Assembly (NCBI GenBank): GCA_033812795.1
Contig: JAPXSY010000006.1
Location: 16,755-80,754 of the forward strand
Direction of reading: 5' to 3'
Length of the DNA: 64,000 nucleotides
From: Kiritimatiellia bacterium
GTDB lineage: Bacteria; Verrucomicrobiota; Kiritimatiellia; RFP12; UBA1067
A program made the position numbers and the translations under genes. Below, piece by piece: positions 3,400-63,841 of the stretch (its first letter is position 1; each line of letters begins with the position of its first letter). The notes beneath the pieces are model-generated. The model was not told where the DNA came from, did no database searches, and saw nothing but the letters and a program-made list of their open reading frames with translations.

Positions 3400-4874
3400 C
3401 CCTGTTTTTTCATCTGGGGGAAGAGGATCACATCCCGGATCACTTCGGTTCCGGTGAGCATCATAACCAGCCGGTCGACCCCCATGCCCAACCCTCCGGT
3501 CGGAGGCATGCCGTGCTCCAACGCCGTGATGAAATCCTCATCGATTTTTTCGGGGTTATCCCCCGCCTGATCAGCCAGCGCCGCGCGCTGCGCCATGGGA
3601 TCGTTCTGTTCGGTATAACCCGGACAAAGCTCTTTGCCAGCCACCACGAACTCGAAGACGTCCGCCAACTCGGGATCGTCCGCGCAGGTTTTGGCCAGAG
3701 GCACGAACTGGCGCGGGATGCGCGTCACGAACGTGGGCTGACGCAGCATTTTCTCGACCACTTTGCCGTAGACCTCATGCGTGACCATCAGATGGTTCCA
3801 CGACGGGTCGATGTCCACCCCCTTCGCCTCAGCACGCGCCCGCGCCTCGTCCACCGGCAGATCAAACCAGTCCGGCCCCATCACCTCCCTCACCGCGTCC
3901 CGATACGCGATCTCGCGGTAGGGCGGAGTGAAGTCCAGCATCTCCTTGGCTTCACCGTACGCCACCTGCAGCGTGCCGAGCACCTTTTCGCACAGGTGCG
4001 GCATGAGTCCTTCAATGAGGTTCTTCATGGAGGAACGGTCGCCGTAGGCCTCGTAGACCTCCAGCACGGTGAACTCCGGATTGTGTGTGCGGTCGATCCC
4101 CTCGTTCCGGAAATCTTTGCCCAACTCGAAGATGCGGTCGTATCCGCCGACAATCAACCGCTTCAAATACAACTCAGGCGCGATACGCATCACCATCTCG
4201 GTGTCCAGCGCGTTGTGATGCGTGACGAACGGTTTGGCAGCCGCACCCCCCGCCTGCGGCTGCATGATCGGCGTCTCGACCTCGATGAACCCGCGCGCGT
4301 GCAGGAAAGCGCGGATCTCCGCCAGAATCGCGCTCCGCTTATCGAACCGGGCACGCGACTCGGGATTCATCATCAGATCCAGATAACGTTTGCGGTAACG
4401 CTCTTCGACATCCTGCAACCCGTGGAACTTCTCGGGCGGTTGCAGGATCGCCTTGCCCAGCAGAACCCACGTGTGGACCTCAAGGGTCGGCTCACCGGTA
4501 CGCGTCGTGAAGAGGCGACCCTCGACACCAATGAAATCCCCCAGATCGAGATAGGCGAACGCATCGAACTGTTCCGGGGTCAACCGATCCTTCTTGACGA
4601 AAATCTGAAAATTGCCGGTGCCGTCGCTGAACGTTGCGAACGAGGCCTTGCCCATGCGCCGGATGGTCATCAGGCGACCGGCCGCCCGCACCACGCGATC
4701 CTCCGTAAACGTGGAGCGGATTTCCGAAAGGCGCGTGCGCTCAAACGCCTGCCCGTAGGGCGCAAACCCCCGCTCCTCCAGACTGCGCAGATTAGCGATG
4801 CGCTGTGCGCGATACTCGTTTCCCGACTGCGGCTGCTCCTCTGACATCTCGACCGTCCCTTTCCTTTCAACCAT
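3396..4874 (-). CDS. lysS: Lysine--tRNA ligase (class II)
   Basis: 492 aa. It has an OB-fold N-terminus and a class-II core ending in GGLGMGVDRLVMMLTGTEVIRDVILFPQMK. Confidence 0.9.
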   Translation of the reverse strand: MVERKGTVEMSEEQPQSGNEYRAQRIANLRSLEERGFAPYGQAFERTRLSEIRSTFTEDRVVRAAGRLMTIRRMGKASFATFSDGTGNFQIFVKKDRLTPEQFDAFAYLDLGDFIGVEGRLFTTRTGEPTLEVHTWVLLGKAILQPPEKFHGLQDVEERYRKRYLDLMMNPESRARFDKRSAILAEIRAFLHARGFIEVETPIMQPQAGGAAAKPFVTHHNALDTEMVMRIAPELYLKRLIVGGYDRIFELGKDFRNEGIDRTHNPEFTVLEVYEAYGDRSSMKNLIEGLMPHLCEKVLGTLQVAYGEAKEMLDFTPPYREIAYRDAVREVMGPDWFDLPVDEARARAEAKGVDIDPSWNHLMVTHEVYGKVVEKMLRQPTFVTRIPRQFVPLAKTCADDPELADVFEFVVAGKELCPGYTEQNDPMAQRAALADQAGDNPEKIDEDFITALEHGMPPTGGLGMGVDRLVMMLTGTEVIRDVILFPQMKKQG

Positions 4875-12600: not shown

Positions 12601-12895
12601 CCAAGGCCTCGATCGGCAGTCCGTGGCAATCCCAACCGAACCGGCGTTCCACATGGTGGCCGCGCATCGTCTGATACCGCGGCACGATGTCCTTGATCGT
12701 ACCCGCCAGCAAATGCCCGTAGTGCGGCAAACCGGTCGCAAAAGGCGGCCCATCATAAAAAACGTACTCGCGTTGTCCCCGGCGTTGCTCCACGCTTTTC
12801 CGGAAGGTGTCGTGCGACTCCCAAAACGCCAGCATGTCACGTTCCATGCCGGGAAAATCCGTTTGCTTCGATACAGGTTCAAACATAAGATTCAC
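9680..12895 (-). CDS. ileS: Isoleucine--tRNA ligase (type 2)
   Basis: 1071 aa. HIGH-like motif: PHYGHLL. KMSKS motif: KMSKRLKN. The editing (CP1) domain is present. There is an in-frame tandem-repeat insertion (DLGVRSEDLGVEDLGVEE). Confidence 0.92.
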   Translation of the reverse strand: MNLMFEPVSKQTDFPGMERDMLAFWESHDTFRKSVEQRRGQREYVFYDGPPFATGLPHYGHLLAGTIKDIVPRYQTMRGHHVERRFGWDCHGLPIEALAQEALGVSGAQAIREFGVAAFNEQCRSMVLTYVEEWRKTVTRMGRWVDFDNDYKTMDPGFMESIWWVFKQLWDQGRIYKSYRIMPYSWKLSTPLSNFEAGNNYKDVQDPAVTVRVRVRSGAEPAWGTTYLLIWTTTPWTLPENLAICVGPEIDYVVVRDCEDETVFVLAEARLPVYYKDAGAYEVLARLKGEALRDWTYEPIFPHFAEYRDAGAFRVLTDSFVSTEDGTGLVHMAPAYGEDDFRVCQQAGLSVIADPLDAACCFTEAVPECQGRFCKDCDKDLIQWLKREGKLVHQTTVTHSYPFCDRTDTPLIYRAIEAWYVRVEDLHERLTRNNATVRWMPEYVGEKRFGNWLNEARDWNISRNRFWGSCIPVWINENDPADQICVGSVAELEQLSGERVTDLHKHFVDRVVIRRDGKVYRRTPEVLDCWFESGAMPYAQQHYPFGDLGVRSEDLGVEDLGVEEKRGKGGQDISTFFPADFIAEGLDQTRGWFYTLMVLGTCLFDQSPFKNVIVNGLVLAEDGKKMSKRLKNYPDPSHILDAYGADALRLYMIYSPVVRAENLRFSETGVKQILRELLIPWWNAYSFFVTYANVDRFDDAEVVRPESPNVLDRWIVSSLETLIRDVTVAMDGYDLQRSVRPFVTFIEDLTNWYIRRSRRRFWKSQNDEDKTHAYRTLRYVLVQLCQVAAPFTPFISEAIYRNLRGASMPESVHLCDFPQAYAAGRDEALESAMARVQQVVRLGRQLRTENDLKIRQPLAVLHVVSGNAGLRAILQGYEDLITDELNIKTVAYGEDETVMADVSVKADFRQLGPRVGPRMKAVAAAIAALSSAEAAALAAGREVSIAVGGESMTLCAGDVVVRRTPKVGMVVASEDDVIVGIETALTPELIREGLAREWVSRVQNLRKEAGYEVTQRIRVTVACGAEVREAIEQYADYVKAETLCEGIRFDEVHGPVIELNGHAVGLHVEKA
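11200..11260. repeat. In-frame coding tandem repeat inside ileS with an approximately 15-nt unit CTCCTAAATCCTCAA (variable)
   Basis: The sequence ctcctcaactcctaaatcctcaactcctaaatcctcactcctcactcctaaatcc translates on the minus strand to (DLGVE)-like repeats between HYPFG and FPADFIAEG of IleS. Confidence 0.8.
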
Positions 12896-13356
12896 TCATT
12901 TCCCCCTTCCGCTCACCCCATGGCGCACGAAAGGTCAAGATGCGTAAAAGCAAGATAGGAAAACTATAAAGGAACTGCCTTGACACGGCAAGACCGTATA
13001 AGAACTTAACAACCTATACCGTGTAACCTGTAACCTGAAAACCGTCCCCGTCAGCCATTAGCTATTGCAACACCTTTAACCCTCTGAACGTCAACAAGTA
13101 AGCTTTTCCGATTCAACGGAAACCCCCACAGACACACGGTTTTCGGCGGATCGAGAAAGCGTAACATCCTCTGAACTAAAACGTTGAAGGCGTTTCCCCC
13201 CCGTAGCCTGTGCGGTCCCGCTTCCGTCCACATATCATGAGAAGTGGACAGCCCTGCACAGAACCAGCGGGAACCATTCGAGGTTTGCGTTACGGTTTTG
13301 GTTTCTCTGCTCGTCGGGTCATGGAGTTCACCTCATTCCACGCACCCGGCGTCTTG

Positions 13357-13631
13357 TCATGCTTGATGAGGAATGCCTGCAAATCCTTCGGCTGAGCTGT
13401 TAAGAGGCGCCTTCTTCCCTTCGTGGTCAACAATCCGCAACATGTAATTCTTCCCGTCACCCTCTGTGAACGTCCACTTACTCTTATCCGTATTATCCTT
13501 GCCTCTCCACTCGCCAATCAGCAAAGGATCAAAGATCAGATCCTGCTCCGTGTATAACGGGTGCAGGGATGGAGCACACCCCATCAAAAAACCAAGATCC
13601 CGAGGGTCATGATCGCAGTCGTCTTTTTCAT
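13357..13631 (-). pseudogene. Small lipoprotein gene interrupted by a +1/-1 frameshift in a homopolymer (A6 on the plus strand, T6 on the coding strand)
   Basis: ATG at 13631 gives MKKTTAIMTLGILVF followed by a stop. With 7 T it would read MKKTTAIMTLGILVFLMGCAPSLHPLYTEQD...GIPHQA, which has a lipobox L-M-G-C. The homopolymer is at 13586-13591. The GC content is locally low. Confidence 0.55.
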
Positions 13632-13646
13632 GTTTTGCCCTTTCAT

Positions 13647-14384
13647 TCAGACGCGCCGCGCCGGACCCGCGACCGCGCGCCGTAAAGCGAGCCACAGCAC
13701 ATCCAGCAGCATCCGCCCCCCGCTGGAGAAGACCCGAACCGTCGAATGCCCGCCGTAATTCCAAATCACCGGAACCTCCACAACCCGGTACCCCAAATCC
13801 CGCGCCATCGCGATGATCTCGACATCAAAGGCGAAGCGGTTGATGCGCGAACGGCTGAACACCTCGCGGGCGACATCCCGCCGGAACAGTTTGAACCCGC
13901 ATTGCGTGTCGCGCATGTCGTGAACCCCGGCAAGACGCACAAGAAGGTTGAAAACCCGGCTCAACACCCTGCGGTGCAACGGCGGAGGCGTAAGAATATG
14001 AGCGCCGCGGACCGCCCGCGACCCACAGGCAATCGCCGCGCCCGCATCCACCGCCTCTTTCAACCGGACCCACTCTTGCAACGGTGTGGAGAGGTCGGCG
14101 TCCGACATCAGGATCAGATCGCCCTCGGCAGCGAGCACACCGGTCCGAACCGCGTAGCCCTTGCCCCGGTTGACCTTGTAGCCCAGCAGCCGGATCCGGT
14201 CACTGCCCGAAGCGGCGATGAACTCGCGCACCACATCCGAACACCGGTCGGGTGAACCGTCATCCACCAATATCGCGTCAACCTTCACCTCGGTCGTGTC
14301 GCGGATAAACGCCGCGACTTGTTCCAGCGTCCCCTTTAACCGACGGTACTCCCGATAAACCGGTATGACGACTGTTAACCGCAT
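13647..14384 (-). CDS. Family-2 glycosyltransferase (dolichyl-phosphate/polyprenyl-phosphate beta-glycosyltransferase-like)
   Basis: MRLTVVIPVYREYRRLKGTLEQV...ILVDDGSPDRCSDVV...LMSDADLSTP. These are GT-A DxD/DAD motifs. Confidence 0.8.
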   Translation of the reverse strand: MRLTVVIPVYREYRRLKGTLEQVAAFIRDTTEVKVDAILVDDGSPDRCSDVVREFIAASGSDRIRLLGYKVNRGKGYAVRTGVLAAEGDLILMSDADLSTPLQEWVRLKEAVDAGAAIACGSRAVRGAHILTPPPLHRRVLSRVFNLLVRLAGVHDMRDTQCGFKLFRRDVAREVFSRSRINRFAFDVEIIAMARDLGYRVVEVPVIWNYGGHSTVRVFSSGGRMLLDVLWLALRRAVAGPARRV

Positions 14385-44181: not shown

Positions 44182-45112
44182 ACCCGCGGCTCTCGATCGT
44201 GACCCAGCCGTTGTAGCCGATCTCATCGATCACCTTGCGCACGGAGCGCCAGTCCACGCTGCCTTTTCCGATCGGCACGAAATCCCCCTCGTTCTTCTTT
44301 TCGCGGTCGATTTTGAAATCCTTGATGTGAAGTTTCACGATCTGGGAACCCAACGCGCGCAGCCACTCCTCGGTCGGGGCGTACCGCACGTTGTTGCCGA
44401 GGTCGAAGTAGGCTTTCACCCACGGGTTGTCAAACGACCGGACAAACGCGGCCGCGAAATCCGGCAGCACCCAGAGATTGTTCCACACATTCTCCAGCGC
44501 GATGATCACCCCTTCGCGCGCCGCGACAGGAATCAGTTCCTCAATCGCGCGCCGCGACATCTCGGTCGCCTGATTCTGCGCGGCGATGTACTCGGCAAAC
44601 GGCGCGTTGTCCCCCTCGACCACCGACGTGACGCGCAGCGTCCGGGGATCAAACGCAATCCGGAACTGCGACGGCTTGGGCATGGTGCCGCCCACCCTGC
44701 ACGGCACCAGCAGGATAACGGAGGATCCATACGTTGCCGTGAGGCGGATCATCCTCTTGACGTCCTCGATCGATTTACGCCGCTGGGCCTCGTCCGAGCT
44801 GTTGAAATTCGTCCACCCGCCCATGAAAGAATGGATGGCGAGTCCGTGTTTCGCGGCCGTCAAACGTCCTTGGATCGCCTGTTCCTCGGTCACGTTCTTA
44901 TTGGACAGTTCGACACCGGGAAAGCCGGCCTTGGCGATCCGCTCACAGGTCTTGTCATCCGCCACACCCGCAATTAACGCCTTGTACAGCGTGGTCCGGA
45001 ACGCGCATGCGCCCCCCCCCTCCTGCGCGACCCCGAAACGCGGCATCCCCGTCACTGCCCCGGCTGCCGCCACACCCATCATGAATGCCCTGCGGTTCAT
45101 CTGCATGTCCAT
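44123..45112 (-). CDS. Tat-secreted sugar-phosphate isomerase/epimerase (xylose-isomerase-like TIM barrel)
   Basis: The twin-arginine signal is MNRRAFMMGVAAAGAV. The barrel carries the AP-endonuclease-2/XylA-like fold (IKLHIKDF...). Confidence 0.65.
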   Translation of the reverse strand: MDMQMNRRAFMMGVAAAGAVTGMPRFGVAQEGGGACAFRTTLYKALIAGVADDKTCERIAKAGFPGVELSNKNVTEEQAIQGRLTAAKHGLAIHSFMGGWTNFNSSDEAQRRKSIEDVKRMIRLTATYGSSVILLVPCRVGGTMPKPSQFRIAFDPRTLRVTSVVEGDNAPFAEYIAAQNQATEMSRRAIEELIPVAAREGVIIALENVWNNLWVLPDFAAAFVRSFDNPWVKAYFDLGNNVRYAPTEEWLRALGSQIVKLHIKDFKIDREKKNEGDFVPIGKGSVDWRSVRKVIDEIGYNGWVTIESRGFTDAEHSALMDRFFAGQGA

Positions 45113-50939: not shown

Positions 50940-50984
50940 GACTAATGCCTTCGTCTTTTGTCTCCTGTCCCCCCCCCTCTTCCC

Positions 50985-61150: not shown

Positions 61151-61381
61151 GTCCCCTCCCTCCAATTATCATTGTTGATAATAGTAAACCGCATCCCCAG
61201 AAGCGTGTCAAGCCATCGAGTTGATTTCAGTTCTGCTCTTTTTTTTCTCACGCGGAGGCGCGAAGGGTACGAGGTTTTTTGAGGGGGACGTTGTCCCGAA
61301 CCGTCGAAAACACCGCACCCCGCCAACACACGTCCGGCCTACGCCTGCGCCCCCCCCCGACGGGCCGAGGCGAGGGTAGCG

Positions 61382-62905: not shown

Positions 62906-63841
62906 ATGCCGGGCCGGGTTTGGATACAAAAGAGCAAAGTGAAGGTCCTTTTCCTGTTCATCGATGGCGTGGGACTGCGCCCACCCGCAACGGACAATCC
63001 GGTCCATTCCGGCATCTGCCCGACGCTGTGCCATCTTATCGAACAGCACGGGGTGTCGATCGACGCGTGTCTGGAGGTGACAGGCTTGCCGCAAAGCGCC
63101 ACCGGACAGACGGCTCTGTTCACGGGTGTCAATGCCTCGCAGATCATGGGACGTCATTGTGAAGGCTTTCCCGGTCCCACGCTCCGCAAACTCATCGAGC
63201 AGGGCAATCTGTTCATGGATCTCTCGCGCAAGGGGCTGCGCTGCCGATTTGCGGACGCCTATCTGGTAGACAGCGTGGACGAACTGCGGGGCCGCCGTTT
63301 CAAATCCGTAACAACCGTGATGGCGCTGACCCAGCCCGAGACGATCTCCATTCAGGATGACCTGATGGCGAATCAGGCGGTCTTCCATGACATCACCCGT
63401 AAGAGTCTGCAAGAAAAAGGGTTGGCCATTCCGCTGGTCACCCCGCCGCAGGCCGCCGAACACCTCATCGAGGTCGCGTTGGCGAATGACTTCACCCTGT
63501 TCGAGTTTTTCCAGACGGATCTGGCCGGCCACTCATGCCAATACGATCAGGCATGCGAAACACTCCGCACGCTGGATCTCTTTCTCGACATGGCCGTGAG
63601 ACTCTGCAAGACCACCGGTTTGCTGCTGATCCTCACCAGCGACCACGGCAATATCGAAGACATGGGCACACGCGGCCACACCCGCAATCCGGTGCCGCTG
63701 ATCGCCCTTGGCCCCGGCGCGGACGAAATCAAGAACCTCGCGTCCAGTCTAACGGACATCACTCCGCGCCTGACGCGTCTGATGGTTCCGGGACACACCT
63801 CCATGCCGCGGACAGCCCCCCCCGCTGATTCCGCCCAGTAA
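62906..63841 (+). CDS. Alkaline-phosphatase-superfamily 'metalloenzyme' domain protein (ApgM-type phosphoglycerate mutase/phosphopentomutase-like)
   Basis: VLFLFIDGVGL is the N-terminal metal-binding Asp motif. ILTSDHGN is the C-terminal metal-binding motif. Confidence 0.55.
   Translation: MPGRVWIQKSKVKVLFLFIDGVGLRPPATDNPVHSGICPTLCHLIEQHGVSIDACLEVTGLPQSATGQTALFTGVNASQIMGRHCEGFPGPTLRKLIEQGNLFMDLSRKGLRCRFADAYLVDSVDELRGRRFKSVTTVMALTQPETISIQDDLMANQAVFHDITRKSLQEKGLAIPLVTPPQAAEHLIEVALANDFTLFEFFQTDLAGHSCQYDQACETLRTLDLFLDMAVRLCKTTGLLLILTSDHGNIEDMGTRGHTRNPVPLIALGPGADEIKNLASSLTDITPRLTRLMVPGHTSMPRTAPPADSAQ

Follow-up and report, generated by a model that had tools for sequence, protein, structure and literature searches.

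A lipoprotein gene with two lesions in an uncultured Kiritimatiellia species is very probably a fixed pseudogene

Introduction

The programmed −1 frameshift site of E. coli dnaX is A AAA AAG with a downstream hairpin. Frameshift stimulators usually lie at a spacing of 5–9 nt. Homopolymer tracts within coding regions also drive known switches, as in the case of the poly-C tract of Neisseria pilC, where the reading frame of an exported or surface protein is set by a mononucleotide run in the 5′ part of its coding sequence (PMC5953494). A study of the Neisseria phasome set its minimum tract length at 9 (G) or 11 (T); the shortest switching tract that it cites is G7 (PMC5953494). Frames are also broken for good in ordinary bacterial pseudogenes, which carry lesions such as a homopolymer frameshift and an internal deletion. 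Among exported proteins with a barrel fold, lipocalin-like lipoproteins are represented in the PDB by 4qrl (BACUNI_01346) and by 5cyb of S. pneumoniae.

Here, we analysed a locus in a window of 64,000 nt (the whole stretch of DNA under study) from an uncultured Kiritimatiellia species sampled by metagenomics. We conclude with high confidence that positions 13290–13631 (minus strand) are a fixed, non-functional pseudogene with two lesions, derived from a gene for a lipoprotein of ~190 aa. Nothing essential separates this copy from ordinary pseudogenes with a homopolymer frameshift and an internal deletion; it stands out only by a combined lesion length of 240 nt and by the survival of every invariant residue in the parts that were retained. 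As in Neisseria pilC, a mononucleotide run in the 5′ coding region sets the frame, but unlike pilC-type loci the tract has only 6 bases, shows no length polymorphism and is absent in homologues, and the putative ON reading is not an intact protein. The locus shares with the dnaX site a slippery run that is followed by a hairpin, whereas it has no in-frame tandem-slippage heptamer, the hairpin spacing is wrong, the shift is not conserved and the downstream product is truncated. The intact family resembles 4qrl and 5cyb in consisting of lipoproteins of ~190 aa with a mostly beta model; however, the structural matches are weak, there is no sequence match, and the window copy is without most of the modelled barrel.

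Results and Discussion

Reading frames at the locus

The locus lies downstream of a GT2 glycosyltransferase ORF that ends at 13647 (Pfam PF00535, E 1e-24). After a spacer of 15 nt, which contains AAGGG as a possible ribosome-binding site, a signal-peptide remnant ORF (13584–13631, minus strand) starts at an ATG (13631–13629), encodes MKKTTAIMTLGILVF and ends at a TGA stop (13586–13584). We refer to its frame as frame B, and to the frame of the lipobox described below as frame A. The stop overlaps a run that is exactly T6 by inspection of the sequence (A6 on the plus strand, 13586–13591). Adding one T to this run gives MKKTTAIMTLGILVF-LMGCAPS…IPHQA, a reading of 91 aa that ends at a stop at 13359–13357, and a −1 shift on the T6 run leads into this reading as well. 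Two Lys stand within the first seven positions of the repaired N-terminus, which fits the PROSITE lipobox pattern, with the Cys at position 19, the same position as in five intact homologues. The lipidated peptide of such a product would be CAPSLHPLYTEQDLIFDPLLIGEWR. With T6, the signal peptide is not in frame with the lipobox, and only the hypothetical repair of one T joins the two.

The T6 sequence itself contains a second ORF of 75 aa (P0010, MGCAPS…IPHQA; 13357–13584, minus strand), which comprises an N-terminal fragment of the lipoprotein and a 15-residue out-of-frame tail. It stands in public annotations (NCBI, JGI, ENA, Logan) as a ‘hypothetical protein’. Its ATG overlaps the leader stop codon as TGATG (minus strand, 13584–13588). 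This overlap is an accident of TTG ATG, the codons for lipobox Leu-Met, after the loss of one T. In form it resembles translational coupling by termination-reinitiation, with a leader of 15 codons.

The GC content of 13290–13631 is 50.6%, versus 62.1% in the window and 63.3% in the GT2 gene. A preliminary description, made from the letters alone, had reported an early stop after the ATG at 13631, the T6 run, an extra T that would join the signal peptide to the LMGC lipobox frame, a distance of 15 nt from the GT2 gene and a local GC content below that of the flanks. All of these observations are borne out by the coordinates and values given here.

The gene belongs to a large family of lipoproteins

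A homology search with the repaired product returned nine protein clusters, of which eight (P0002–P0009) are homologues of 179–197 aa. Most of the eight start with a signal peptide and a lipobox with Cys19, and a near-invariant SxHPLYTEQDLIFDP motif follows the lipobox. A profile of these eight full-length sequences was run against 1.84 billion cluster representatives (clusters at 50% identity) and matched 4487 of them at E ≤ 1e-3, including 696 at E ≤ 1e-30. Family members are mostly 185–200 aa long, with intact homologues of about 190 aa. Some representatives of 310–334 aa contain two matched stretches, which suggests a tandem duplication. Searches of Pfam and NCBIfam with the repaired product and the full-length homologues found no family, and a PDB sequence search with the family profile gave nothing significant (best E 0.13). 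The intact family is thus large, undescribed and without a Pfam model, and it could merit a description of its own.

An AlphaFold2 (AF2) model of the homologue P0004 (mean pLDDT 77, pTM 0.70) consists mostly of beta strands with three helices. In a Foldseek comparison of this model with the PDB, the best matches were lipocalin-like or avidin-like barrels. These matches were weak, with none at E ≤ 0.001; the best was 4qrl, at E 0.034, TM 0.30/0.45 and 14% identity. On the basis of this model, we tentatively propose that the family may have a lipocalin-like barrel fold.

A genome scan with the family profile identified 24 loci in PVC-group phyla, Bacteroidota and others. The MAGs that carry the family are labelled Sumerlaeota, Omnitrophota, Phycisphaerae, Verrucomicrobiae, Kiritimatiellaeota, Lentisphaerae, Planctomycetota, Bacteroidota and others. 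No orthologous GT2–lipoprotein–ileS locus was found among these 24 loci, and the intact homologues sit in unrelated contexts that are not syntenic with the window. The genes of intact homologues have a lower GC content than their own contigs in all three cases checked, markedly so only in L012 (52% vs 67%). The low GC content may therefore belong to the gene rather than to the locus in the window.

Two further observations concern individual family members. In an uncultured Phycisphaeraceae MAG (L022 around 6012, CAYRTH010000056.1), the residues that precede the Cys are …ERRDNRWHENRSVEVDLLTSC, and no in-frame signal peptide can be recognised; this copy may be another decayed or mis-started member of the family. 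The intact homologue P0003 is among the closest homologues by nucleotide sequence, with 80% identity over the C-terminal segment. P0003 co-occurs with a GT2 relative (P0167, 71% identical) in both JGI 3300010352 (L013/L046) and ENA ERZ27257423 (L015/L047), and this co-occurrence hints that P0003 comes from a related Kiritimatiellia species.

An internal deletion removes the centre of the gene

Alignment with the family divides the window copy into three segments, all on the minus strand. Family residues 1–13 lie at 13631–13593 in frame B. An N-terminal homologous segment, covering family residues from about 10 to 72, lies at 13411–13596 in frame A (tblastn, 52–63% identity) and holds the lipobox LMGC, the HPLYTEQDLIFDP motif and the first beta strands. 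A C-terminal homologous segment, covering family residues from about 154 to 189, lies at 13290–13406, again in frame B, and reads LLTAQPKDLQAFLIKHDKTPGAWNEVNSMTRRAEKPKP before a TAA stop at 13292–13290. Its motif match at 13406–13299 was found by tblastn at E 1e-8 to 1e-15 with 57–83% identity, and in blastn the segment shares 80% nucleotide identity with L013–L016.

Between the latter two segments lies the junction of a deletion, our lesion 2 (13407–13410), at which the 243 nt for family residues 73–153 are replaced by 4 nt. The net deletion is 239 nt (3n+2) and is out of frame. The tblastn segments stop at 13411 and restart at 13406 in another frame, and the protein alignment agrees. In a MAFFT DNA alignment with the intact genes of L012, L013 and L017, the deletion appears as a gap of 239 columns. 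Family residues 73–153 have no tblastn match in the window, and tblastn of intact members found no other copies of the family there. In a comparison beyond the gene (12880–13660), there was no homology downstream of the stop codon, and about 29 nt upstream of the ATG align weakly with the homologues; these are probably the ribosome-binding-site region.

The retained segments keep all family-invariant residues, and in the alignment neither has a stop in its ancestral frame. The motif C-x-P-S-[LV]-H-P-L-Y-T-E-Q-D-L and the invariant residues G40, W42, W53, Y63, D69 and G72 are present in the window copy. The family's C-terminal motif L-T-x-x-P-K-[DE]-L-Q-A-F is present as well, but it is out of frame with the middle segment. 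The deletion took the central invariants G73, F75, H78–L80, L88–D89, P92, D94, N100, Y103, H111–F113, Q124–M125, D131–W132, A143 and H146–E147, so that the deleted stretch carries about 23 of the 50 family-invariant columns. In the AF2 model of P0004, residues 73–153 include predicted strands E72–82, E85–92, E114–119, E122–128 and E146–149 and predicted helices H101–107 and H130–139. The deleted stretch thus corresponds to most of the predicted beta-barrel of the homologue model.

The deletion also decides what the repaired copy could encode. Past the junction, the middle frame (…LNSSAEGFAGIPHQA*) is an out-of-frame read-through, and the C-terminal segment, being in a different frame, is unreachable by translation from the middle segment. 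As a consequence of the 239-nt deletion, a T7 allele would give only a stub of 91 aa, with 57 residues of mature family sequence and a tail of 15 out-of-frame residues. Neither T6 nor T7 can yield a protein of the family architecture. The two lesions together sum to 240 nt, a multiple of 3, so the signal-peptide remnant ORF and the C-terminal segment have frame B in common. We treat this as a 1-in-3 coincidence without consequence, since three stops intervene in the shared frame.

The T-run is probably one T short and its length does not vary between assemblies

The other lesion, lesion 1, is the T6 run at 13586–13591 (minus strand), which is one T short of the ancestral length that we infer. 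The ancestral run would be T7, read as GTT TTT TTG (V F L), since with T7 the Cys19 lines up with that of every homologue; one T would have been lost after the hydrophobic core of the signal peptide but ahead of the lipobox. As the window contains 24 runs of this length (13 T6 and 11 A6), a T6 run alone is unremarkable. What shows the frameshift to be real is homology to either side of the run: family residues 1–13 map ahead of it, and intact family members matched 13596–13411 in tblastn at E 1e-15 to 1e-21. In the intact homologues examined, there is no homopolymer run at the equivalent site, which reads CTTTTAAC in L012 and TTTCTC in L013–16. T-runs elsewhere in the signal-peptide regions of homologues are sporadic and at other positions. 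The window contains longer homopolymers, namely C9 at 45012–45020, 50969–50977 and 61350–61358, C8 at 63816–63823 and T8 at 61239–61246. If there is any hypermutable or error-prone tract in the window, these are better candidates than the T6 run.

The position of the run speaks for a reading in which the gene is a phase-variable (contingency) locus, where slipped-strand mispairing would toggle between T6 (OFF) and T7 (ON) and so control a short surface lipoprotein. The run falls exactly between the signal-peptide core and the lipobox, T7 restores the Cys19 lipobox, and in-frame homopolymer tracts such as the pilC poly-C drive known systems (PMC5953494). Such a switch predicts alleles of different lengths. 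A further 12 contigs of the species were retrieved (five from JGI, five from ENA, one NCBI MAG and L042 from a JGI metagenome scan); they come from various samples and were built by various assemblers, with contig names in SPAdes style (NODE_), MEGAHIT style (k141_), JGI and NCBI MAG form. Over lengths of up to 6.2 kb they share 99.4–100% identity with the window. All 12 carry T6 and the deletion, as consensus assemblies in which minority alleles stay hidden; 11 of them were found by look-up of P0001 and P0010, ORFs that T6 itself produces, and the twelfth by a metagenome pattern scan that permitted any run length and matched this single contig, with T6. Three linked SNPs at 13195–13205 and one SNP at 13325 separate the contigs into at least two haplotypes, and the MAG L007 is more divergent than these two. 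As T6 and the deletion occur in all haplotypes, the lesions predate haplotype divergence.

Protein collections give the same picture. The 75-aa T6 product P0010 occurs in 58 blocks (NCBI, JGI, ENA, Logan), from which 22 contigs were read. No T7 product appeared in the homology search, which would have caught one, and exact look-up of T7, T5 and T8 products from either possible ATG gave zero matches among about 15 billion proteins. Against phase variation, then, stand the single run length across haplotypes, the missing alternative products, the lack of a conserved tract in homologues and an ON state that is not an intact protein; moreover, T6 and T7 are well under the published tract lengths of G 9 and T 11. 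We regard phase variation as very unlikely. The lesions are common to every species assembly retrieved, which makes the T-run a mutational scar and not a regulatory device.

This bears on what the preliminary description had left between two readings, a gene ‘disabled or switched’. The first stands, with two lesions and real homologues; the second is not supported, as T6 is invariant and T7 would give only a stub. The same holds for its suggestion that the slip may be regulatory or phase-variable, against which stand the deletion, a lesion that it had overlooked, T6 in 12 of 12 contigs, the lack of a tract in homologues and the shortness of the run. It had proposed comparing the length of the T-run between relatives (T6 in all 12 contigs, no run in intact homologues) and had named a T6 run invariant across strains, together with a repaired ORF without homologues, as the outcome that would speak against it. 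The run is indeed invariant across assemblies, and the repaired ORF has homologues, a combination that fits ‘disabled’ and not ‘switched’.

The site does not have the anatomy of a recoding signal

A related reading places the shift in expression instead of in the DNA. If tRNA-Phe made a programmed −1 slip on U UUU UGA, or if transcription slipped on the run, a lipoprotein stub would be made at low level; alternatively, reinitiation at UGAUG would yield the 75-aa protein without a signal peptide. Several features of the site speak for this: with the stop in the A site, a −1 slip of the P-site tRNA on UUU re-pairs perfectly and leads into F-L-M-G-C; a 7-bp hairpin (GAUGGGG…CUCCAUC) directly follows the run; and reinitiation is possible, since the leader stop and the start codon of the 75-aa ORF overlap. 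However, the codons TTG GTT TTT TGA contain no zero-frame X XXY YYZ heptamer and permit only a P-site slip of a single tRNA. The hairpin lies 0–1 nt from the site, and the fold z-score of the 113-nt region is only −2.3. In the homologues the gene is a single ORF without a shift, so the feature is not conserved, and the product would be without the part that matches most of the barrel in the homologue model. Reinitiation at UGAUG would give only a fragment of the predicted barrel without a signal peptide. We therefore consider recoding extremely unlikely, and we reject a programmed frameshift on the anatomy of the site and its lack of conservation in homologues.

A pseudogene could also have been kept for a new role. 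Rare slippage from T6 to T7 could supply a lipid-anchored stub of 91 aa, whether it takes place in the DNA, in the RNA or during translation at U UUU UGA; alternatively, termination-reinitiation at UGAUG could supply the 75-aa fragment, and either might perhaps have been retained. Such retention would explain the survival of all invariant residues in the retained parts. We give this possibility a very small chance.

The least probable reading is a sequencing or assembly error in which the true genome has T7. In its favour, homopolymer indels are a common artefact of some platforms, and the preliminary description had reported another homopolymer frameshift in the window. However, 12 further contigs of various sample and assembler origin replicate T6, and 58 blocks list its ORF. 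The 239-nt deletion occurs in all 12 as well, and a homopolymer error cannot explain it, so we reject this reading. As for that other frameshift, a mechanical scan of the window for pairs of long coding-like ORFs that differ in frame and are separated by a run of at least 5 bases gave no convincing candidate, only two weak ones at 2650–2654 and 3479–3483 (minus strand), which may include the frameshift meant in that description.

Gene decay at a synteny breakpoint

The locus thus has the features of a fixed pseudogene: intact homologues exist, the frame is broken, there is more than one lesion, and the lesions are common to the assemblies of the species. Two independent lesions, the loss of one T and the out-of-frame deletion of 239 nt, disable the gene, and most likely no functional product remains. 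Residual expression of fragments is possible. As all invariant residues survive and the retained segments have no stops in their ancestral frames, the decay is recent.

A GT2 protein identical to that of the window is named by NCBI ‘MAG TPA: … [Kiritimatiellia bacterium]’, and the GT2 proteins next in similarity share only about 70% identity with it. The loci of these relatives (L043–L047) keep the upstream AIRC, Na/H exchanger–PTS EIIA and GT2 genes. An FAD oxidoreductase or a GDSL lipase follows downstream of GT2 in these loci, and in the relatives examined both the lipoprotein gene and ileS are absent from this position. As the relatives differ directly downstream of GT2, the remnant and the 394-nt spacer that follows it (12896–13289, 50.5% GC, no recognisable homology) lie at a GT2/ileS synteny breakpoint. 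The gene would have arrived, or have been stranded, in the rearrangement that placed ileS beside GT2.

The finding has little biological weight; it adds one example of gene decay, from an uncultured Kiritimatiellia species. It does bear on annotation: the 75-aa ‘hypothetical protein’ listed in NCBI, JGI, ENA and Logan is a pseudogene fragment. More generally, where a short homopolymer breaks a frame, the whole gene should be checked against full-length homologues before phase variation is called.

Rfam and tRNA scans of the whole window gave nothing, and a literature search on the MAG accession gave no matches. The GT2 ORF of 261 aa has no exact record, and gene callers use a start that gives 245 aa. 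The haplotypes differ within 11 nt of the spacer (window 13195–13205), reading GGCTACGGGGGGGAAACGCC versus GGCGACGGGGGTGTAACGCC on the minus strand; one of them breaks a G7 run (plus-strand C7, 13196–13202), which has no length variation. Finally, in one JGI contig of 1053 bp, a population variant (P0012, equivalent to window about 13690–13760) differs in the peptide that precedes the remnant in that reading frame, with MCCGSLYGARSRARLNERAK… in place of …VARFTARGRGSGAARLNERAK…, which implies an indel in the 3′ end of GT2 in that sample.
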